Assembly (NCBI GenBank): GCA_964520505.1
Contig: CAZFQP010000003.1
Span: 16,738-80,737, forward strand
Source: an uncultured Candidatus Saccharibacteria bacterium
Lineage (GTDB): Bacteria > Patescibacteriota > Doudnabacteria > UBA920
Direction of reading: 5' to 3'
Length of the DNA stretch: 64,000 nucleotides
Both the position numbers and the translations under genes were made by a program. How positions within the stretch are numbered: the stretch's first letter is position 1; every line of letters starts with the position of its first letter. Positions 5,715 to 62,872 of this stretch are shown in pieces. Below the pieces are notes generated by a model. It was given only the letters and a program-made list of their open reading frames with translations. It was not told the origin of the DNA and searched no databases.

Positions 5715-5736
5715 TTTGATACAAAATAAATAGCAG

Positions 5737-5764
5737 GAGACCGGGAGGTCTCCTGCAGAGCGAG
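5737..5764. terminator. Bidirectional hairpin GCAGGAGACCGGGAGGTCTCCTGC between folA and the convergent small gene
   Basis: Perfect 9-bp GC-rich stem; located between convergent gene ends. Confidence 0.6.
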
Positions 5765-5774
5765 CGGTAAGTGC

Positions 5775-6032
5775 TTACCGCTTTTTGAAGTGTTTGGCGA
5801 CCCCCATCACCAGTACGGTGATGGCAATCAGCACTATTCCGATTGCAAACGGTCGGAGTATCATAACTCCGAGTGTGTTGGCTGCACATGCTTCGGCTCC
5901 TTTGCAAGCGCCGGTTACATTTCGTACCAGCAAAAGTTCAATCGCCGCAGCCAGCAGTAATAATGGTCCTACAATTTTCATAAACCCCCCTGTGATTTGT
6001 TCATCAAGAGCTACATCCTTACTCTTGACCAT
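5775..6032 (-). CDS. small integral membrane protein (2 TM), hypothetical
   Basis: 85-aa ORF with two hydrophobic helices and a charged C-terminus; function unknown. Confidence 0.45.
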   Translation of the reverse strand: MVKSKDVALDEQITGGFMKIVGPLLLLAAAIELLLVRNVTGACKGAEACAANTLGVMILRPFAIGIVLIAITVLVMGVAKHFKKR

Positions 6033-6084
6033 ACATTTTTACAAAAAATGACAACAATGTCCATACTTGTAAAAAAGCGGGGTA

Positions 6085-6113
6085 TTGACATTTGGTAAAA
6101 TGTAGTGTATAAT
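6085..6113 (+). promoter_or_regulatory. Consensus sigma70-type promoter TTGACA-17-TATAAT
   Basis: Exact TTGACA at 6085-6090, 17-bp spacer, exact TATAAT at 6108-6113. Confidence 0.7.
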
Positions 6114-6133
6114 ATTCATTTTTTCAGAGTTTC

Positions 6134-6170
6134 AGAGGGGCACCCTCTGGAAGAGGGTGCCCCTCTTTTC
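6134..6170 (+). terminator. Leader hairpin (15-bp perfect stem AGAGGGGCACCCTCT/AGAGGGTGCCCCTCT, 3-nt loop) + TTTT, ~20 nt after the predicted TSS: attenuator or ~40-nt sRNA
   Basis: Seen directly; intrinsic-terminator geometry inside a 5' leader. Confidence 0.55.
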
Positions 6171-6228
6171 ATAGAGCTGATTTTCTGATAAAATAGGTTA
6201 GCTCTGGCTTTCTTTTCGCCGGGTTCTT

Positions 6229-14472: not shown

Positions 14473-15831
14473 TTAAGCCTTTTCAAAAATAACTATTTCC
14501 CTTGCTACTATTTGGTCTTTGCGGTCATAAATCGCAGTTTTGCGGTCTGTGAGCTTCAAAAACTTCATATTTTTCGCTAATTTCGAGGAAATAATATCCA
14601 CTAAATTATATCCCAAAGGTGCAATAAAGTCAAGACTGGGCAGCATTTCGTAAGCTTCGCGGGTCTTTTTGTAGGCCGGAATACACATAACTACTCGGCC
14701 TTTTGCAGGTAGGAATTTGGCAAATTCTGCCAGGCAAGCCTGGTAGAGTTCGGTTAATTCCTGAAAATTTTTGGTAATTTCTTTGTTTTCCGGGTATTTT
14801 CCGTAAATAGGTCCTAAGGTTGATTCCGTAACCACAGCGGCGATTTTTTGGCTCACGAGCAACTTTGCCACGTCTCTGGCGTCGGCTGCTTCCACATGGT
14901 ATTTTCCCGGTGATATTTTGTAGCGATTTCTAAACCACTCCAAGTTTTGTTCACTACCCTTAATAGCTTTTTTATTAATGTCGCTTCCGAGCATTTTATA
15001 GCCGAGTAAAATTCCTTCCTGAATGATTGTGCCAATGCCACAGAATGGATCTAAAATAGACTCTCCGGTTTTGGCCCCGGAAAGGTTTAGCATAATTTGT
15101 GCGACTTTGGGCGGAATCATTCCTTGTTTCTCGTCGCGAGCCGGCCGCTGGTAGTCGCGCCGGCCGTAGTCTTCAAAATCTTGCACGGCAATTGTTTTGG
15201 CGGTATATACGCCGTCTTTGCCGGCCAAAATGCAAATTTCAGCACCTTTTTGCAAAAGCAAATTTTTTGTTACCACCACGGAAGCCAGAGCGAGAGAGTT
15301 AAATTCCGGTAACACCAAACGCACGCTGGCGCCGGTTTCAGTTAATCCTTTTTTAATCATCATGCCAATGCGCTTTGGTTCGCTAAAAATATTATTGGTT
15401 CGCTCAAATTGACCAAAGTTATCCTTACCATTTTGAGGCCTGGAGTTTGCAGGAGGTCTTTGCAATAAAGACATATCTAAAATATAGATGCTAACGCCAA
15501 ATTGCACCTTACCTTTGTAATCTTTAAAAAACTGCTTTTTTAAAACGCCTGGCTTAAAGTAATGTTTGAGCGCGAAGTTAATGGAATCATTTTCCCTTTT
15601 TTTTATGGTATCTACGACTTCTAAAATTTTAACCACGCCTCCTAATTTTCTTTGCATTTTTTCCGCGTTCAGCGGCGCCTCGGTTTCTATTAGTAAAATT
15701 TCCGGGGAACTCTCCAAAATCTTTAACGGTTGGCCGGTTAAATTTAAAGCCGGATCCGGACGTTCTAAAATAGCAACTAGTTCGGCAATGGACAAGCTAT
15801 AAACCCTGCCTAATACAAATGCGTATTTCAT
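14473..15831 (-). CDS. putative RNA (guanine-N2) methyltransferase with N-terminal THUMP-like domain (Trm11/RlmL/UPF0020-like)
   Basis: SAM-binding motif DPFCGIGTI and a DNA/RNA amino-methyltransferase fold; N-terminus MKYAFVLGR..SLSIAEL typical of this family; palindromic terminator overlaps the stop codon. Confidence 0.55.
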   Translation of the reverse strand: MKYAFVLGRVYSLSIAELVAILERPDPALNLTGQPLKILESSPEILLIETEAPLNAEKMQRKLGGVVKILEVVDTIKKRENDSINFALKHYFKPGVLKKQFFKDYKGKVQFGVSIYILDMSLLQRPPANSRPQNGKDNFGQFERTNNIFSEPKRIGMMIKKGLTETGASVRLVLPEFNSLALASVVVTKNLLLQKGAEICILAGKDGVYTAKTIAVQDFEDYGRRDYQRPARDEKQGMIPPKVAQIMLNLSGAKTGESILDPFCGIGTIIQEGILLGYKMLGSDINKKAIKGSEQNLEWFRNRYKISPGKYHVEAADARDVAKLLVSQKIAAVVTESTLGPIYGKYPENKEITKNFQELTELYQACLAEFAKFLPAKGRVVMCIPAYKKTREAYEMLPSLDFIAPLGYNLVDIISSKLAKNMKFLKLTDRKTAIYDRKDQIVAREIVIFEKA

Positions 15832-15865
15832 TTTAGATTTAAGATTATGTTATAATTAATCTGCA

Positions 15866-16267
15866 ATGATTAGCTACGAACAAGCAAAAGTTTGGGTAAA
15901 AGAAAATAAGCAACAAATTGTGCTTGCCGTATGTTTCGTATTGGTGTTTATTGTTGGTTTCGGAAGCGGTAGATACGAGCGGGAATTCCGCAGGCAAAAA
16001 ATAAAACCACAAAATAATTATACCACAAATTCAACAAAAACCCCAATTATCCCGCCGGATAATAAACAGAGGACTGAGGGGGCGGTCTTGGGGGCTAAGA
16101 CAGCATCGAGCACAGGGGATTGTATAATAAAAGGAAACATTGCTTCCACAGGTAAAAAAATATTTCATGTGCCCACCGGAGCTTTTTATAAAACTGTTAA
16201 ACCCGAACAATGTTTTAAAACCGAAAGTGAAGCTTTGGCCGCCGGGTTTATTAAATCCTCCAGATAA
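15866..16267 (+). CDS. hypothetical membrane-anchored protein with C-terminal Cys-bracketed domain
   Basis: N-terminal TM anchor; C-terminus C..IKGNIASTGKKIFHVPTGAFYKTVKPEQCFKTESEALAAGFIKS. Confidence 0.45.
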   Translation: MISYEQAKVWVKENKQQIVLAVCFVLVFIVGFGSGRYEREFRRQKIKPQNNYTTNSTKTPIIPPDNKQRTEGAVLGAKTASSTGDCIIKGNIASTGKKIFHVPTGAFYKTVKPEQCFKTESEALAAGFIKSSR

Positions 16268-16304
16268 TTTGTTTAAAAGTCAGCTTTTATAAAAAGGTTG
16301 ACTT

Positions 16305-16339
16305 TTTTGTTTGTATATTGTATAGTATGAACACTTTGG
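16305..16339 (+). promoter_or_regulatory. Promoter TTGACT-17-TATAGT
   Basis: Near-consensus hexamers at correct spacing preceding the structured RNA. Confidence 0.55.
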
Positions 16340-16344
16340 GTTCC

Positions 16345-16900
16345 GATTCTGAGCTTCGGGACCTTGGGTCTTTATAGACAAAGTACATCAGCTTTGCCGG
16401 ATTAAGTTTCGGTTGCTCTCTTATGTCAATCGCGTTCCGTAAGAGAGTTGCTCTATAAAGACCCAAAAGTTTAGGTGGTATGCTGCCTAGAGTGGAGAGT
16501 TTAGTTAAATGCCAAGAGAGTGGTAGTGGGTGGCCTCGTATCCAACCGAGGTGACGGCAAATGACAAGACTTAAAGCTTTCAAGAGCGGCATGCTGCCGA
16601 GGCCTTAGCCTAGGGGCCAAATTCATTAGTGATAGGCGCTTTCCTTGCGTGAGGTGGTAGATTGCGCACTTTCGTCTCCCCGAAAGTCTTCGGTGAAGAA
16701 TTGTCTAACCGAAAAGGAGAGGTCGCGGCAGAAGGAGGAATAAGTGGTTGGGGTGGAAACCGGCGGAGTAATTTTTCTGCCCGCCCGCCAAATTTGGAGA
16801 AAGCATGTTTAGCTCCTCCAGGCCTTTGTTTAGGCATGCTTTCGGCAACCACCATTGCTCCTTCTGCCGCCGGGAAAATATTTTCCGGCGGCTATTCATT
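16345..16900 (+). ncRNA. ~550-nt GC-rich, hairpin-dense noncoding RNA / long leader of unknown class ending in a perfect palindromic terminator (GCCGCCGGGAAAATATTTTCCGGCGGC) immediately before the cysteine desulfurase start
   Basis: GC clearly above flanks; multiple long-range stems (e.g. GGGTCTTTATAGA...TCTATAAAGACCC); contains a T-box-like string GGGGTGGAAACCGGCGG; ORFs overlapping it on both strands translate to low-complexity nonsense. Confidence 0.4.
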
Positions 16901-16910
16901 TTCATTTAAT

Positions 16911-18155
16911 ATGTCTTTAACTCATCATAAAAAAAATATTTATCTGGATTACGCCGCGGCTACGCCTGTGGATTTAAGAGTGCAAAAAGTTATGCAGCCT
17001 TTTTTGTCGCAAGCTTTCGGCAATCCGTCGTCTTTACACCAAAAGGGGAAAGAAACCTCTCTGGCTATTGCCCGGGCGCGGCAAACGGTTGCCAAGCTTG
17101 TTGGCAGTAAACCGGAAGAAATTATTTTTACCGCCGGCGGCAGTGAAAGTGTTAGCTTGGCGATTTTTGGCGTAGCGCGCCATCATCAGCAAATAAAAAA
17201 AGATCAGCGGTTGCATTTAATTACTTCTGTTATTGAGCACCACTGCGTGCTAAATTCTTTTTCGGCCTTGGCAGGGGAGGGGCTGAAAACAAGTTATATC
17301 AATGTCGACAAAACCGGAGTGGTGGATATTAAGCAACTTAAGTCTAGCGTCAGACCTGAAACGATTTTAATTTCTATTATGTTGGCCAACAATGAAATTG
17401 GCACGGTTGAACCTGTGGCCGAAATAGGGAAGTGGCTGAAAGGGTTAAATATTCAGAGAGCAGCTCAAGGCCTGCCAAAGATTATTTTCCATACCGACGC
17501 TTGCCAGGCCGCCGGGTTTTTAAATTTGGATGTTAACAAGTTGGGTGTAGATTTAATGTCAGTTAATGGCGGAAAAATTTATGGCCCAAAACAAACCGGG
17601 TTTTTATATGTCAGGTCGGGGACTGAGCTCAAGCCAATAATCTATGGTGGCGGTCAGGAGAAGGGCCTAAGAGGCGGAACCGAGAATGCTGCCGGCGTGG
17701 TAGGTTTAGCCAAGGCTTTGGAGTTGGTGAGTCTTGAACGAAATAAGGAAAATGACAGGCTAACAAAACTGAGGGATTATTTGATAAGTCGAGTTCTTAA
17801 AGAGAATAAAGGAATACTTTTAAATGGTGTCGATAATATAAATTTAAAAGTAAATAAAGAAAGTTTGTTAAGATTGCCAAATAACGCCAACTTTACCATA
17901 AAAGGAGTTGAGGGTGAAGCTTTAATGTTATATCTGGATGCTTATGGCATTTTTGCTTCTACTTCCAGTGCCTGCAGTACCGGCAGTACCGAGGCTTCAC
18001 ATGTCTTATTGGCAATCGGCAGAAATGAACAGGAAGCGAGAAGTTCAATTCGGATGACCTTAGGCAAACAGACGACCAAGGACGATATAGACTACGTCTT
18101 AAGAGTCCTTAAAAAACTAATCAGCGAGCTTAGGAAGGTTAAACAGCTGTCTTAA
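16911..18155 (+). CDS. cysteine desulfurase (IscS/NifS family class V aminotransferase)
   Basis: PLP-lysine region SVNGGKIYGPK and active-site loop SSACSTGS; start moved to MSLTHHKKNIYLDYAAATPVD (ATG 16911); the track ORF 5' extension is noncoding RNA. Confidence 0.85.
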   Translation: MSLTHHKKNIYLDYAAATPVDLRVQKVMQPFLSQAFGNPSSLHQKGKETSLAIARARQTVAKLVGSKPEEIIFTAGGSESVSLAIFGVARHHQQIKKDQRLHLITSVIEHHCVLNSFSALAGEGLKTSYINVDKTGVVDIKQLKSSVRPETILISIMLANNEIGTVEPVAEIGKWLKGLNIQRAAQGLPKIIFHTDACQAAGFLNLDVNKLGVDLMSVNGGKIYGPKQTGFLYVRSGTELKPIIYGGGQEKGLRGGTENAAGVVGLAKALELVSLERNKENDRLTKLRDYLISRVLKENKGILLNGVDNINLKVNKESLLRLPNNANFTIKGVEGEALMLYLDAYGIFASTSSACSTGSTEASHVLLAIGRNEQEARSSIRMTLGKQTTKDDIDYVLRVLKKLISELRKVKQLS

Positions 18156-18176
18156 GGGTAAAAATTAGCGGATCCG

Positions 18177-18602
18177 GGGGAGAGCTACTTTTAAAATTTT
18201 ATTTAAAATAATCAACATAAAATAATATTTCAATTTGAATTAGAAAATATTACCGGATTAGAAATAAAAAAATATTTAAAAGATTAAAAGCCACAATTAA
18301 AAGTGGCTTTTAATTAACCCTAGGGAACTGTGGAAAACTAAATATCAACAATGTCGCACAATGTATCTTATGCGACAACGATAGTATTGAAAAGACCTTT
18401 TGCTTGTGCTTTTGTCTGTTTGAACCAGAGTTCTAATTATAATTTAAATTGATTAAAATATTTTATATTTACATTTATATTAAATATATATTTTACAATA
18501 CTCTGCTAAGGTTTGATTGTATGAATTTATTTTAAATAATATTTTCGATTGAAATAAAAAGTATATATGTCCTCAAACGCTAATTATGCAGTAGCTCTCC
18601 CC
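18177..18602. mobile_element. MITE-like nonautonomous element: ~426-bp AT-rich ORF-less segment bounded by perfect 13-bp terminal inverted repeats GGGGAGAGCTACT / AGTAGCTCTCCCC
   Basis: TIRs read directly; interior has several hairpins and no ORF. Confidence 0.5.
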
Positions 18603-18639
18603 TGCCGGCTTAAAACCAAGTAGAGGACTCATCTATACA

Positions 18640-18673
18640 AAAAAACCGCCTCAATGAGGCGGTTTTGAAAAAA
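18640..18673. terminator. Terminator AAAACCGCCTCAATGAGGCGGTTTT
   Basis: 8-bp stem with flanking A/T runs. Confidence 0.7.
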
Positions 18674-18682
18674 GTCGGACAA

Positions 18683-19694: not shown

Positions 19695-21011
19695 TTAATT
19701 ATTGCCCAAAAAATCTTTGGGATTATAAGTATAGCCATAAGGCACTTTATAAGCGCCATAAATTTTGGTATAGGCTCCGGGGTTTACGCCAAAGCCCTCG
19801 GCGTCATAAACGCCAAAGTGAATGTGGTATCCCCTTTCCGGCCCGTATAATTTTTTAGTAGTATTTCCCGTGTTGCCTTCATAGCCGATAACGTCTCCTT
19901 GTTTGACTTGCTGGCCAGGAGAAACTTTAAAACTTCTAAAGTGTCCGTATAAAGTAATAATTTGACTGCTGCCGTTTTTGGTGGAAATATTATGTTTAAT
20001 CGCAACCCAATTGCCGTAAGAGGCATCGCTTTTATCGGTATAAATAACTTCGCCGTCGGCAGCGGCGTAAATTGCCTGGCCTGCAGGGGCGGCAATATCT
20101 ATGCCATTATGAAAATTATAACCTAGCGCGGTAAAGCCGGTATTACCATAACCTTGAGTTAAAATCCCGTCCATTGGCCAGGCCAAAACGCCTTTAGCCG
20201 CCGGGATGGATTTGTTACCTAGCTTGGCGCGGATTTTTGCGTCTAAGTCCTGAATTTCTTTTTGCAGGTTGGCTTCATCTTCTTTGCTGGAAGCCAGAAG
20301 TTTTTGGAAGTTTTTTTCCAAGCCCTTGGTCTGGCTAAGCAAAGCTTGTTTTTGCCCCCGGATGCCGGATAAAGAACTTTTAGTAATTTCCAATTGATTT
20401 TTTAGTTCTTCCAGTTTTTTAACCTGAATTTCCAAATCCCGTTTTTGTCCTTCCAACTTGGCTTTTAACTCTTTAATTTTTTGCACCAGCTGGTATATTT
20501 TACCCTGTAAATTTTGAGTGAATTGCACTTGATCCAAAAAGTCAGACAGGCTATTGCTTCCAACCGTGGTTTTTAAGGCGTATTGGTCATCATATTGGTT
20601 AAGCTCGACAATTAATTGCCCCAAAACTTTTTTATTATCTTCTATCTCTTTAATTTTTTGTTCAATTAAATCTTGGAGTTGTTTAATTTGGAGGTTGGAA
20701 TCTTCAATTTGCGTTTGCTTGCCCTGGATTTGCAGTTCAGTTGAGGCAATTTGTTTGTCGTAAATGAAAATTTCGTTTTTTAAACTGTTGGATTTAGCTT
20801 GGGTCGTGGAAATTTGCTGCTGGTAGCTTTTAATTTGTTGATTGATTTCCTGAAGTTTTTTTTCATTAGCGGTTTTGGCCGCGGCTAGTTCGTCGGCGGT
20901 TTGTTCGGCAAAAACCGCATTAAAACCGCTCAAGCAAAAAATTAAGGCAACAATAAGCCCGCTAGCAAATTTTCTTTTTATTTTGGTATCAGTTTGTAAA
21001 AACATTAACAT
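19695..21011 (-). CDS. M23 family peptidoglycan endopeptidase with N-terminal coiled coil (EnvC-like)
   Basis: Long heptad-rich N-terminal half; C-terminal HxxxD...H.H M23 motifs (GIDIAAPAGQAIYAAADGEV ... GYHIHFGVYD). Confidence 0.8.
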   Translation of the reverse strand: MLMFLQTDTKIKRKFASGLIVALIFCLSGFNAVFAEQTADELAAAKTANEKKLQEINQQIKSYQQQISTTQAKSNSLKNEIFIYDKQIASTELQIQGKQTQIEDSNLQIKQLQDLIEQKIKEIEDNKKVLGQLIVELNQYDDQYALKTTVGSNSLSDFLDQVQFTQNLQGKIYQLVQKIKELKAKLEGQKRDLEIQVKKLEELKNQLEITKSSLSGIRGQKQALLSQTKGLEKNFQKLLASSKEDEANLQKEIQDLDAKIRAKLGNKSIPAAKGVLAWPMDGILTQGYGNTGFTALGYNFHNGIDIAAPAGQAIYAAADGEVIYTDKSDASYGNWVAIKHNISTKNGSSQIITLYGHFRSFKVSPGQQVKQGDVIGYEGNTGNTTKKLYGPERGYHIHFGVYDAEGFGVNPGAYTKIYGAYKVPYGYTYNPKDFLGNN

Positions 21012-24089: not shown

Positions 24090-24593
24090 GTGAAAGACTT
24101 AACCCCAATTCAGCGATGCATTTTGGAGTTTTTGCTCCGGCGCCGCTCAGCTCAGGCTGAGGAGATTGCCGCGATGCTAAAGCTTGGGCTCGATGTTGTT
24201 AGGCACGAGATTCAAGCTCTGCGCAAAGACGGCTGGATTCAAGACAGAATTAGAGTCCAGGATGATCGCTTGCGCGGGCTTGGGTACAATCACAAGTTTC
24301 GTTTTAACTTGTTTTTGAACACGGCGGCTCAGGGCCGCAGCAAAGAATTTCCAAATGCCAAAGACCCGGAAAGTTTGGCTGTGGCTGTTGTCTCCAGGCT
24401 GAAGAACCATCCGGAGATGGGGCCGGAGATTCTGGTCGGGCGGCTCTATCTTACTTTGGGAGGGCGGCTCGACGCCAACTTTAGTATGAGGTGTAAAGAC
24501 GCCAAAACTAAGGATTTGGCAAAGGAGCTGCTGCAGAGCTTGCCGGGGGTGGAATCTGTGTCGGTTTACACAGAGCTTCTCATCGGCCTGTGA
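24090..24593 (+). CDS. Lrp/AsnC-family transcriptional regulator (GTG start), GC-rich gene
   Basis: N-terminal HTH LTPIQRCILEFLLRRRSAQAEEIAAMLKLGLDVVRHEIQALRKDGWIQ and C-terminal RAM-like domain; strong SD AAGAGGAGG 8 nt upstream; GC ~55% versus ~40% flanks. Confidence 0.6.
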   Translation: MKDLTPIQRCILEFLLRRRSAQAEEIAAMLKLGLDVVRHEIQALRKDGWIQDRIRVQDDRLRGLGYNHKFRFNLFLNTAAQGRSKEFPNAKDPESLAVAVVSRLKNHPEMGPEILVGRLYLTLGGRLDANFSMRCKDAKTKDLAKELLQSLPGVESVSVYTELLIGL

Positions 24594-34308: not shown

Positions 34309-35097
34309 TTATTTTAAGTTTAAGTAATATCTTCTTTGTTTTTCCGGCAGGCGTTCAATGCTGTAGCGCAAGGCGGTACGTGGCATTTTTTTAGCATTGG
34401 CGTCCAAAAAGGCAGTTAAATATTTTTCCCCACAACGCTTGCCCATTTCCCGCAGCATCCACCCGGTGGCTTTATGTATGAGGTCGTGTTTATCGGTTAA
34501 TAAACTTTTTGCTATAGCAATAGCGTCTTTTGTTTCCCCATTTTTTAAAAAAGTAAAAGTCGCGAGTATGGCAATGCGCCTCTCCCACAAGTTTTTGGAT
34601 TTGGCGAGTTTGTTTAGTGTTTTGTTTTTTACCCTCACCCCTGCCCCTCTCCCGTCAAGGGAGAGGGAATAAAGATAAGACCCAACTATATTCGGTGCGG
34701 ATAAATCTACCAAGTCCCAGTTGTTTATGTACTTAGTATGCCCTAAATAAAATTGATAGACATCTTTTGGTGTTATTTTCAAATGAGATCCTTCTCCGCC
34801 CGCCGGCGAATCAGGATGACGCTTTATAAGATTAGAATATTTTTTTACTAATATAAGCAAGGCGATAAGTCGTTCTTCGTGGATTTTAGATTTGATTAAT
34901 TTATCCAAATCGGCCAGGGATAACTTATCCCAGTATTTGTTTTCCAAGACGCGTTGCTGCGGCACCATAAGTCCTAAAAAAATATCCCCTGCCCCATACT
35001 GGCCGGGCGCAGTTTTAAAAAACCGCTGCAAAATTTTTGCTTTAGCGGGGCTGGCTAACTTTTTGATATCTGATTTTAGGAGGTTTAAGTTTGACAT
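34309..35097 (-). CDS. DNA alkylation repair enzyme (AlkC/AlkD-like HEAT-repeat glycosylase family)
   Basis: Family signature region WDLVDLSAPNIVGSYL...ATGWMLREMGKR; carries an in-frame GC-rich hairpin/G4-type insertion (SLSLDGRGAGVRV). Confidence 0.75.
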   Translation of the reverse strand: MSNLNLLKSDIKKLASPAKAKILQRFFKTAPGQYGAGDIFLGLMVPQQRVLENKYWDKLSLADLDKLIKSKIHEERLIALLILVKKYSNLIKRHPDSPAGGEGSHLKITPKDVYQFYLGHTKYINNWDLVDLSAPNIVGSYLYSLSLDGRGAGVRVKNKTLNKLAKSKNLWERRIAILATFTFLKNGETKDAIAIAKSLLTDKHDLIHKATGWMLREMGKRCGEKYLTAFLDANAKKMPRTALRYSIERLPEKQRRYYLNLK

Positions 35098-48427: not shown

Positions 48428-48433
48428 GCGTTT

Positions 48434-48728
48434 GGGCAGGTAGCGAAGCGGTCAAACGCGACTGACTGTGAAAGATTGCAGCTCTTAAAAGAAATTTTAA
48501 GATGTCCTCTCTGGGATAACGGTGAAAGCTAAATCAAATCAAACTGACAAGCTAATACCGTGGGAACCCTGATAATTTATCGGGGAGCGCCGTAGAGACT
48601 AGATACCAGAGTACCTAAAATCTTAAACGATTATGGTAAAGATATAGTCCACCCCTTTTGGAAACATTTGGATAAGTGAAATCAGTTGGCTTATGCCTTC
48701 ATAGGTTCGAATCCTATCCTGCCCACCA
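48434..48728 (+). tRNA. tRNA-Tyr (anticodon GTA) interrupted by a ~209-nt group I intron in the anticodon loop (exon 1 48434-48469, intron 48470-48678, exon 2 48679-48728)
   Basis: Exons reconstruct a class-II tRNA closely matching bacterial tRNA-Tyr (D-loop AGCGGTCAAA, long variable arm, T-arm AUAGGUUCGAAUCCUAU, CCA encoded). Exon 1 ends in U pairing with intron IGS GCAG (U-G), intron ends in G, and the intron contains GTAGAGACTAGA matching the P7/J8-7 core of bacterial tRNA group I introns (e.g. Azoarcus tRNA-Ile intron). Confidence 0.7.
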
Positions 48729-48763
48729 TAAAAAAACTTTCAGAAATCTGAAAGTTTTTTTAT
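48729..48763 (+). terminator. Terminator AAAAAAACTTTCAGAAATCTGAAAGTTTTTTT
   Basis: Perfect 9-bp stem between A- and T-runs. Confidence 0.75.
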
Positions 48764-54612: not shown

Positions 54613-55500
54613 TTATTCTGTTATTAACCGTTTAAATTTTTCAAAATCTTGGCGGCCGTGGACGCGGATGCGCGGAATTTCCATTAGGTTTTCCAAATTA
54701 ACCCGGTTGCCTTCGTGAACCGTAACCCCTAAGTCAAAGCCGCATGCTTTGGCTTGTTTAATATAATTGGCAGTATAGTGGCCGTAGGGATATATTAAAA
54801 TATTTGTGTTAAAACCCAGGTGGTCGCTTATATCTTTTTTCGATTCGCACAAATTCTTGTATATAAACTCATTGGAAAATTTAGGATTTTTGCCATCAAA
54901 ATGGTCTTGGGTGTGGGAAACTATCTCGTTGCCAGCGTCATAAGCCTTGGCAATTTCATTCCACGAAGCGTAAAAATTGTCGCCGTTTTGAGTACCGGGA
55001 AATTGAGTAATAATCGCAAAGCTTCCGCTAAATCCGTTTTGCTTTAGAATTGGCGCAGCGTATAAAAAGACATTTTCATAGCCGTCATCAAAAGTAAAAA
55101 TAACTGGATTTTTTGGCATAGTAAATTTACCGGCGGCAAAATCCCGCAAGTCAGACAGGTGGATGCTGGTATAGCCGTTATCTTTAAGCCACTTAACCTG
55201 GGTGGTAAATTCTTCTACGGACACGGTTAAATCACGCCTTAGATCTGTAGGTTTTTCAGGTAAGGGACCTATGTGGTGATACATTAATATGGGCAATTTT
55301 ATGCTGCGACCAACCGGCGCCTTTGGCAGGGCCTCGGTGTCTTTATTGGTAATTAGCCGGGCATAAGCGGTGTCCCCTGTTTTATCGCTCTCAATTTTTT
55401 TTAAGGTTTGCCAGTTGTTATAAAATCGAAAAACCATCGCGGACAATAAAATCACGACAACAGTAACGGCGAGAGAAAAGTTTTTATTCTTTTTAGTCAT
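54613..55500 (-). CDS. polysaccharide deacetylase (NodB-homology, PgdA/CDA1 family), membrane-anchored
   Basis: TFDDGY motif 1 and histidine motifs of NodB domain; N-terminal TM. Confidence 0.8.
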   Translation of the reverse strand: MTKKNKNFSLAVTVVVILLSAMVFRFYNNWQTLKKIESDKTGDTAYARLITNKDTEALPKAPVGRSIKLPILMYHHIGPLPEKPTDLRRDLTVSVEEFTTQVKWLKDNGYTSIHLSDLRDFAAGKFTMPKNPVIFTFDDGYENVFLYAAPILKQNGFSGSFAIITQFPGTQNGDNFYASWNEIAKAYDAGNEIVSHTQDHFDGKNPKFSNEFIYKNLCESKKDISDHLGFNTNILIYPYGHYTANYIKQAKACGFDLGVTVHEGNRVNLENLMEIPRIRVHGRQDFEKFKRLITE

Positions 55501-62546: not shown

Positions 62547-62656
62547 CCGCGGATACGCGGATAAAATTCAGATAACACAGATTAACGTCCCGTGGTATTT
62601 TGCTGGGTCAAATGCATCCGAGGATAAAGAACCGGTAGTGTTTAGTTTTTAAAGTC

Positions 62657-62760
62657 TTGTTCATAAAACTCACAAATGTGAGAGTTATGAACAAGAAAGT
62701 TTTGTAGAAATGATTGCGCCGCGGTCTGAGTTTGAACTCAGACCGCGGCGTTGTTTTAGT
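62657..62760 (+). terminator. Two tandem hairpins after dnaE: nested palindrome CTTGTTCATAAAACTCACAAATGTGAGAGTTATGAACAAG and a strong terminator CGCCGCGGTCTGAGTTTGAACTCAGACCGCGGCG + T-run
   Basis: Perfect 11-bp and 14-bp stems. Confidence 0.75.
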
Positions 62761-62872
62761 TTCCTGACCTGCCCCACTTGCGGCCTTTGCGGCCGTTAGC
62801 GATGGAGCATATTGCGACTGCCAGCCCTCCTAGGAGGGAAAGAGCAATCATTAGGATGGTTGTCTTGTTCAT
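62756..62872 (-). CDS. possible 38-aa hydrophobic peptide (MNKTTILMIALSLLGGLAVAICSIANGRKGRKWGRSGN)
   Basis: Short ORF directly downstream of the 76-aa membrane protein gene on the minus strand; GC-rich; below track cutoff. Confidence 0.3.
   Translation of the reverse strand: MNKTTILMIALSLLGGLAVAICSIANGRKGRKWGRSGN

Follow-up and report, generated by a model that had tools for sequence, protein, structure and literature searches.

The region between an arfC-like gene and the cysteine desulfurase gene iscS was analysed in a stretch of 64,000 nucleotides (nt) of DNA from an uncultured Patescibacterium of the Doudnabacteria lineage (contig CAZFQP010000003.1, positions 16,738 to 80,737), hereafter referred to as the window. 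By its transcription signals and predicted fold, the region is a separately transcribed, highly folded RNA of ~570 nt with a promoter and a terminator of its own. Related loci carry comparable RNAs, and our preferred reading, to which we assign a probability of about 0.6, is that these constitute an independent family of structured small RNAs (sRNAs) with an orphan Shine-Dalgarno (SD) box, the window RNA doubling as a leader of iscS. The family is defined by its location in the slot between arfC and iscS, its own promoter and terminator, an invariant box and the sequestration of this box in a helix (P1), and not by overall sequence.

Loci carrying iscS were gathered by protein searches of genome contigs and metagenome contigs, complemented by look-ups of exact proteins. 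They share a conserved neighbourhood, in which rpmA and an RNA methyltransferase gene on the minus strand are followed by the arfC-like gene, a gap and iscS on the plus strand. The gap measures 270-770 nt and is enriched in GC in 13 family members (the window, L001, L002, L003, L005, L006, L012, L161, L163, L166, L169, L171 and L172), with RNA lengths of ~270 to 640 nt; it is just 57-240 nt long in seven syntenic loci without the RNA (L004, L013, L165, L167, L168, L170 and L173). The iscS proteins of the other members are 49-67% identical to that of the window. A scan of metagenome contigs with the iscS protein returned distant loci only (at most 51% identity over most of the protein, with one partial match at 64%), none of them with the RNA. 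As far as sampled, the RNA family is restricted to Doudnabacteria-like Patescibacteria.

The sole sequence common to all 13 members is (A/G)A(A/G)GGAGGA followed by 5-6 A/U-rich nt, a perfect mimic of an SD sequence with neither a conserved start codon nor a conserved open reading frame (ORF) behind it. A k-mer census of 11 members recovered AGGAGGA in all 11 and AAGGAGGA in ten; AGGAGGA is also present in L171 and L172 (13 of 13), its chance occurrence per RNA being ~0.04 by our own estimate. In the 12 members whose 5' end is complete, 41-490 nt separate the box from that end, and in every member the box occupies the 5' strand of P1. The 3' strand of P1 is pyrimidine-rich and, in 12 of the 13, ends 36-63 nt from the 3' end of the RNA, directly before the terminator. 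The box is predicted to be paired throughout the family, with a probability of being unpaired of 0-0.29 as compared to whole-RNA means of 0.30-0.37. When both strands of the window and of 169 loci (~1.3 Mb) were searched, the module of box, P1 and U-run was found only in the arfC-iscS slot, and it is present as a single copy in the 64-kb window. Another recurrent word, the 7-mer GTTTAGG found in six of 11 members, was dropped, as its position relative to P1 is not fixed.

Judged by covariation, P1 is a conserved structure. The ungapped two strands of P1 from 11 members were aligned with their interiors replaced by a GAAA linker; 94.8% of the cells form standard pairs as compared to 73.8 +/- 2.3% in shuffles, and 8 of the 14 pairs are changed on both sides (33 cells), which none of 500 shuffles reaches. 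The distal seven pairs differ in nearly every lineage (GCGGCAG, GGCGGUG, AAUGAG, GGCAAGAG, GCGGUUGAG, CGGUGGG). The proximal AAGGAGG is constant and its partner varies (CCUCC, CUUUC, UUUUC, UCUCC), giving rise to G.U pairs; since the Gs are kept opposite U although A would pair better, selection appears to act on the purine sequence itself and not on pairing alone. Support from covariation, which an earlier reading of the letters made without database searches (hereafter the sequence-only reading) had proposed to look for in homologous loci, is found for P1, the remaining helices being unalignable. Between 63 nt (L006) and 350 nt (L002) long, the interior of P1 lacks a common architecture, except that L001 and the window are predicted to share one layout (P2, P3, mini-hairpin and P4) with different helix sequences.

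L161, whose iscS is the closest to that of the window (67% identity), has two P1-like helices (2380-2495). The internal helix carries the AAGGAGGA box, and the terminal one (GGCGGGAAGAAG/CUUCUUUCCGCC) lacks a box and abuts the terminator, which suggests that the P1 module is duplicated in this locus.

Outside the box and P1, the RNAs have diverged extensively. When 173 loci were searched with the window RNA (nhmmer nucleotide profile), L001 alone matched, and only in its 3' half (E 7e-9), and an all-against-all blastn comparison of the 13 RNAs gave the window and L001 as the sole matching pair. An alignment of these two with MAFFT and RNAalifold misaligned the box region, and its result was not used. 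Structured sequences of another kind were also encountered upstream of iscS. In L024 (3763-3997), from another Patescibacterium, there are four near-perfect GC hairpins with short loops, mostly GUAA in the context C-GUAA-G, representing a different element; in L011 (3653-4000) the gap is structured (GC 0.49 versus 0.37 in the flanks) and contains two AGGAGG motifs without the P1 and terminator module of the family.

Folding and transcription signals are shared by the members in spite of this divergence. All 13 sense strands fold better than shuffled sequences (z -3.2 to -7.8), and each has a lower absolute minimum free energy (MFE) than its antisense strand. Dinucleotide shuffles have an MFE of -184.7 +/- 7.4 kcal/mol and the plus strand of the window RNA one of -234.4 kcal/mol (z -6.7; z -7.8 in an independent re-run; z -6.7 to -9 over the shuffled controls as a whole), whereas the minus strand reaches -183.7 kcal/mol (z -4.5); the sense strand is thus the better folded. 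Promoters of the form TTGAC(T/A)-N17-TG-TATAAT or similar lie upstream of the RNA in 11 other loci, often overlapping the arfC stop codon or terminator. The promoters of L161 and the window are nearly identical though the RNA bodies are unalignable, a likeness which argues that expression is under selection.

The coordinates of the window features are given in Table 1. The promoter predicted by the sequence-only reading was recovered, and it is the only plus-strand promoter-like site that a promoter scan detected in 15800-17100. The predicted terminator palindrome with its T-rich tract was also found directly upstream of the cysteine desulfurase gene as claimed, with a correction of the spacing: the tract ends ~8 nt and the hairpin 18 nt before the iscS ATG, instead of the 10 nt stated for the tract. 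The hairpin is followed by TATTCATTTT, a U-tract that is interrupted (UAUUCAUUUU) and the poorest in the family. GC enrichment, described earlier as far above the flanks, turned out to be moderate (0.47-0.525 versus ~0.36-0.44), and the GC skew is positive. The long complementary segments noticed in the letters are borne out by TTGGGTCTTTATAGA/TCTATAAAGACCCAA, the perfect helix that closes the three-way junction around GCTCTCTTATG/CGTAAGAGAGT; the same domain holds an 11-bp hairpin (GCUCUCUUAUG/CGUAAGAGAGU) and is lineage-specific, no homologue aligning to it in the all-against-all blastn comparison. Both GGYATGCTGCC blocks exist (at 16477 and 16588), but they are the two strands of a single 13-bp helix and not a repeated motif. 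A tandem repeat or a TIGR/CRISPR-like array was rejected, as the only direct repeats are two-copy ones that constitute helix strands. A block within the helix-A domain (TAGGCNCTTTCC) is conserved in the nhmmer alignment with L001, and the 3' module is closed by P1 in the MFE fold. A CsrB-like sponge of GGA motifs was rejected as well, our own count being ~7-8 GGA in the window RNA versus ~10 expected.

Table 1. Features of the arfC-iscS region, in window coordinates (MFE, minimum free energy)
Feature	Position	Strand	Basis or remark
arfC-like gene	15866-16267	+	encodes a membrane protein; directly upstream of the hairpin and the RNA promoter
Terminator hairpin of the upstream arfC-like gene	16275-16306	+	terminator-like site and inverted repeat; 3' arm contains the -35 box of the RNA promoter
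Sigma-70-type promoter, TTGACT-17-TATAGT, with TG just before the -10	16298-16326	+	10/12 consensus positions matched
RNA, ~570 nt	16333-16902	+	ends inferred from promoter (start ~16333) and terminator
5' hairpin, 8 bp	16339-16363	+	MFE helix list
Three-way-junction domain, perfect 15-bp closing helix TTGGGTCTTTATAGA/TCTATAAAGACCCAA (16364-16378/16452-16466, 100% complementary)	16364-16466	+	inverted repeat and MFE
Long irregular hairpin domain, basal 13-bp helix 16474-16486/16586-16598 formed by the two GGYATGCTGCC blocks	16474-16598	+	direct repeat and MFE
Small hairpin GGCCUUAGCCUAGGGGCC	16601-16618	+	sequence kept in L001; nhmmer alignment with L001 and MFE
Helix-A domain, UUUCCUU/AAGGAGA closing three hairpins	16640-16720	+	MFE; same layout predicted for L001
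P1 5' strand, GCGGCAGAAGGAG	16725-16737	+	inverted repeat and covariation across 11 homologues
SD-like box AAGGAGGA and A/U-rich spacer (AAGGAGGAAUAA)	16732-16743	+	k-mer census; shared by all 13 members
P1 interior: P2 (GUGGUUG/CAACCAC) closing a junction of P3, CCA..UGG mini-hairpin and P4	16744-16852	+	MFE
P1 3' strand, CUCCUUCUGCCGC, pyrimidine-rich, anti-SD-like	16858-16870	+	inverted repeat and P1 pairing; last 5 nt are the start of the terminator stem
Intrinsic terminator, GCCGCCGGGAAA/TTTTCCGGCGGC, 12-bp stem, 3-nt loop	hairpin 16866-16892, unit to 16902	+	scan and inverted repeat
iscS/nifS-type cysteine desulfurase	16911-18155	+	PF00266 homologues; best named relatives from Candidatus Doudnabacteria

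No known RNA family or protein accounts for the region. At the gathering threshold, Rfam 15 identified three tRNAs only in the whole window, none of them at the RNA region, and at E<=10 the segment 16200-17000 gave noise only, with no match to T-box, riboswitch, RNase P, tmRNA, SRP, 6S, OLE, GOLLD, ROOL, raiA or HEARO; in seven homologous loci searched at E<=5 no consistent family emerged. ARAGORN found no tRNA or tmRNA in the RNA region. The Rfam comparison proposed by the sequence-only reading thus agrees with its failure to place the region as RNase P RNA, tmRNA or SRP RNA. Its view of the region as non-coding holds too: Pfam has no family for the three ORFs inside the region, nor for the upstream arfC-like protein, and no conserved peptide was found in the three sense frames among 11 homologues (all-against-all comparison of stop-to-stop peptides, all E>0.009). 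The ORF track crosses the region, as had been argued, merely for want of stop codons, iscS with its real ATG at 16911 being lengthened upstream by 83 codons in ORF 16662-18155. The same stop-free, GC-rich 3' part of the RNA (16662-16910) misleads gene callers into over-long iscS genes: the database iscS P0001 has 439 residues as compared to 414 from the ATG at 16911, a 25-residue N-terminal extension, and many iscS homologues are likewise over-long (429-465 residues).

The suggestion of a T-box or a sulfur- or cysteine-responsive riboswitch leader did not survive. The T-box-like string GGGGTGGAAACCGGCGG is indeed present at 16750-16766, but it is conserved in no homologue, being absent in L001, L161, L163, L005 and others; T-box (RF00230) has no covariance model match, and neither Stem I nor a specifier was identified. 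T-boxes resemble the window RNA as long leader-like RNAs with competition between a helix and a terminator and with a sulfur- or amino-acid-related gene downstream. They differ in lying in the 5' untranslated region (UTR) of their gene without an intervening promoter, an arrangement seen here in the window and L006 only. A metabolite riboswitch was rejected on the absence of a conserved aptamer core, the interior of P1 being unalignable and the SD-like box alone invariant.

On sequence evidence, the members of the RNA family are independent genes and not leaders dedicated to iscS, and three observations carry this conclusion. In L002, the whole unit (extended -10 promoter, box, P1 and terminator) lies on the strand opposite to iscS, and the box strand is again the better folded (-199.8 versus -181.3 kcal/mol). 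In ten of the 12 co-oriented loci, a TATAAT, often TGnTATAAT, follows the RNA terminator 6-22 nt before the iscS ATG, and similar iscS promoters are found in loci without the RNA. The third is the near-identity of the window and L161 promoters. The inversion and the separate iscS promoters favour the independent large non-coding RNA (ncRNA) that the sequence-only reading had offered as its alternative, and together with the promoter likeness they exclude a T-box or metabolite riboswitch.

In the window itself, the RNA probably serves iscS as well. The promoter scan detected no promoter-like site between the end of the terminator hairpin (16892) and the iscS ATG (16911), L006 likewise lacks an iscS promoter, and by eye the best candidate in the window, TTGCTC-18-TATTTT, is weak and lies within the RNA. 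The sequence GCCGC is common to P1 and the terminator, and the predicted fold energies are -93.0 kcal/mol unconstrained, -91.5 with complete P1 forced and -87.7 with the full terminator forced, a gap of ~4-5 kcal/mol. The unconstrained and complete-P1 folds leave a terminator of only 7-8 bp, shifted away from the U-tract. The lack of an iscS promoter, the interrupted U-tract and the small difference in energy make read-through likely in the window genome, so that iscS is probably transcribed from the RNA promoter, and the balance between P1 and terminator may tune this read-through. As the overlap of P1 and terminator amounts to at least 4 nt in about half of the members (the window, L001, L005, L169, L171 and L172), the competition may have arisen before iscS lost its own promoter.

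These observations raise the alternative of a cis-acting attenuator or leader of iscS, in which P1 would be an anti-terminator and capture of the box strand by a 30S subunit, a protein or a short translated leader would free the 3' strand of P1 to complete the terminator, thereby setting read-through. The position of the RNA, co-oriented with iscS and directly upstream of it in 12 of the 13 loci, speaks for it, as do the missing iscS promoters of the window and L006, the shared nucleotides of P1 and terminator and the two window conformations so close in energy. Nevertheless, we consider it unlikely as an account of the family, given the inverted L002 unit with its own promoter and terminator, the iscS TATAAT placed after the RNA terminator in most co-oriented loci, often in a position suited to a leaderless mRNA, an overlap of merely 0-3 nt in six members, the lack of a conserved ligand pocket in the unalignable P1 interior (63-350 nt) and the absence of an Rfam riboswitch or T-box match. 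A box followed by an A/U-rich spacer is also what a strong ribosome-binding site (RBS) looks like, and the RNA could instead be the mRNA of a tiny, fast-evolving peptide, a type I toxin or leader peptide, with its RBS masked by the long-range helix. Type I toxin mRNAs (hok, tisB and aapA1 type) typically have their SD hidden in this way, and they are also compact, highly structured and patchily distributed, as the present RNAs are. A GTG placed 5 nt past the box in the window opens an ORF of 22 codons (16744-16812), and L161, L012, L172 and L006 have GTG or TTG at 4-7 nt. However, canonical start codons 4-9 nt past the box occur in only five of the 13 members, where ~25% would be expected by chance (own estimate); the ORFs that follow the box range from 4 to 34 codons, their products are not consistently hydrophobic, no conserved hydrophobic small ORF as in the toxin mRNAs was found in 11 members, and the peptide and Pfam comparisons above were negative. 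A peptide-coding role is therefore regarded as very improbable.

About as improbable is the absence of any dedicated function, in which case the region would be spacer DNA of high GC content, a gene in decay or what is left of a small mobile element whose terminal inverted repeats resemble P1. Patchy presence (13 loci with the RNA and seven without), the single inversion and the extreme variability in length and sequence would fit such an origin. Against it stand the box, invariant in 13 lineages whose iscS proteins have diverged as far as stated above; the covariation of the distal half of P1, where repeats bound by a transposase would be conserved; the conserved promoters and terminators; the strong folding of all members; and the copy number, with one copy in the window and none elsewhere in the ~1.3 Mb of related loci. 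An element resembling a miniature inverted-repeat transposable element finds no support there either, neither multiple copies (in the 64-kb window or outside the slot in the ~1.3 Mb of loci) nor conserved terminal repeats being present. A divergent housekeeping RNA (RNase P RNA, tmRNA, SRP or 6S) or large ornate RNA (OLE, GOLLD, ROOL, raiA or HEARO) would be compatible with the size and GC-richness, and chance strings such as GAAAGUC (16696-16702) resemble CR-I of RNase P; yet the Rfam and ARAGORN searches were negative as described, and a universal RNA would not be unalignable among relatives or traceless in seven of 20 syntenic slots, making this explanation the most far-fetched of those considered.

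Several points weigh against the preferred reading of an independent sRNA family. Seven close relatives lack the RNA at the arfC-iscS slot, and the 13 RNAs are linked as homologues by their position, a short box and a helix instead of by an alignment. The ends of the RNA are those implied by matches to promoter and terminator consensus sequences. The 3' registers of P1 were chosen to maximise pairing, which inflates the comparison with slid partners, and the P1 helices of L171 and L172, judged by eye, each require a one-base bulge. In L161, the box-bearing helix is internal and it is a different, box-less helix that abuts the terminator. The box, predicted to be paired, would not be freely available for binding of 30S subunits, and the overlap of P1 and terminator in about half of the members fits a cis-acting attenuator too.

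The use of SD sequences in the window provides a context for the orphan box. Most of the 41 listed gene starts in the window lack an SD sequence, and at several genes (15866; 19695-21011, 34309-35097 and 54613-55500, these three on the minus strand) a (TG)nTATAAT lies just upstream of the ATG (0-10 nt), a placement that suggests leaderless mRNAs. A clear exception is ORF 24090-24593, whose GTG is preceded at six nt by AGGAGGA (24077); the frequency of AGGAGG in the window is close to the expectation from base composition. The 17-mer GCAGAAGGAGGAATAAG, common to the window and L161, occurs in 16 viral contigs, and as most of these copies precede an ATG or GTG within a few nt, they are genuine phage RBSs.

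Under the preferred reading, the box would be the working part of the RNA and would act once P1 is open, when it would be free to pair with a CCUCC motif. The likeliest partner would be the 3' tail of 16S rRNA, so that the RNA would bind the 30S subunit without being translated. Such binding could protect the RNA from decay in the manner of the stabilising SD-like sequences (STAB-SD) of Bacillus; alternatively, the RNA could titrate or sense free 30S subunits in a genome whose genes mostly lack an SD. In the window and L006, where the promoter of iscS would have been lost, the RNA would also be the 5' leader of iscS, and P1 and the terminator would compete for 5 nt, their balance setting read-through into the gene. 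As a more specific proposal, tentative and rather doubtful, the RNA would be an orphan RBS in an ultra-small bacterium with mostly leaderless or SD-less mRNAs: under the control of a helix, its SD box would engage free 30S subunits through the anti-SD at the end of their 16S rRNA, serving them as a decoy, as a sensor or as a parking site, and in some lineages this would be coupled to read-through into iscS.

The STAB-SD sequence is GAAAGGAGG, single-stranded and near the 5' end of the mRNA, whereas the box of the present family is paired, lies far into the RNA and belongs to a transcript without an ORF. By predicted pairing in 13 members and by position in 12, the boxes are neither accessible nor 5'-proximal as STAB-SD sequences are. 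The two have in common a strong SD-type sequence untied to a conserved start codon, for which a role by pairing with the 16S anti-SD, instead of in protein synthesis, is plausible. SD-like stabilisers in Bacillus, which bind ribosomes outside of translation or in addition to it, have been reviewed (PMC4113751), and for the Bacillus hbs mRNA PMC5737220 describes ribosome binding that blocks RNase J1, along with 5'/3'-UTR pairing near the terminator, a further likeness to P1. Helices that sequester an SD, as in riboswitch platforms, RNA thermometers and icaR, likewise oppose a purine SD box to a pyrimidine anti-SD-like strand and tolerate G.U pairs, and the long-range pairing of the 5'-UTR and 3'-UTR in icaR of S. 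aureus, as outlined in PMC3868564, resembles P1 in reaching the region of the 3' end. The masked SD in those systems serves a downstream ORF, whereas here there is no conserved ORF, and what P1 encloses is variable, non-coding sequence. In the Flavobacteriia, as summarised in PMC9976891 and PMC13000453, rpsU retains an orphan strong SD among SD-blind ribosomes and senses ribosomes without bS21; the likeness lies in a conserved strong SD within a lineage that otherwise rarely uses SDs, which implies that the state of the anti-SD is read for a special regulatory purpose, and the difference in that the SD belongs to a protein gene there and to a non-coding RNA here. The large ornate bacterial ncRNAs OLE, GOLLD and ROOL, as portrayed in PMC9723947 and 10.1101/2024.12.08.627333, are similarly several hundred nt long, multi-domain, encoded in GC-enriched intergenic regions and of unknown biochemical function. 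They possess extensive conserved sequence and structure, whereas the present family retains an 8-nt box and one helix.

Some other features of the window were recorded during the analysis. A tRNA-like gene split by a group I intron of ~213 nt is located at 48433-48733 (plus strand), with an acceptor GGGCAGG...CCUGCCCACCA, a long variable arm and a T-arm GGUUCGAAUCC. The intron (RF00028) scores 47.4 bits at 48459-48671 (E 3.9e-11; gathering score 50), and the gene was missed by ARAGORN and by the Rfam run at the gathering threshold; joining the exons by eye gives the anticodon loop CU|UGAAA, a candidate tRNA-Ser(UGA). In the intergenic stretches 5715-6228, 18156-18682 and 62547-62811, both strands fold far beyond shuffles (z -7 to -10) and several perfect GC-rich hairpins are found, for example a 17-bp stem at ~62716-62751 after a gene of 1169 codons. 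These stretches are probably bidirectional terminators.

To our knowledge, very few ncRNAs beyond rRNA, tRNA, RNase P RNA and tmRNA have been described for bacteria of the Candidate Phyla Radiation (CPR), and our searches of the literature library at hand found no described CPR or Doudnabacteria RNA of the present kind. The components are of known kinds, namely an sRNA gene, masking of an SD by an anti-SD and competition between a helix and a terminator; for their combination, in which an ORF-less RNA of a CPR bacterium poor in SD sequences conserves nothing but a perfect RBS that is masked, we know of no described counterpart. As the genomes are minimal, several hundred nt under a strong promoter imply a real balance of cost and benefit. 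The family thus raises the question of whether SD/anti-SD pairing is used beyond start-site selection in bacteria that are poor in SD sequences and rich in leaderless mRNAs, and whether an RNA family can persist on an 8-nt box and one helix with nearly no other sequence conservation.

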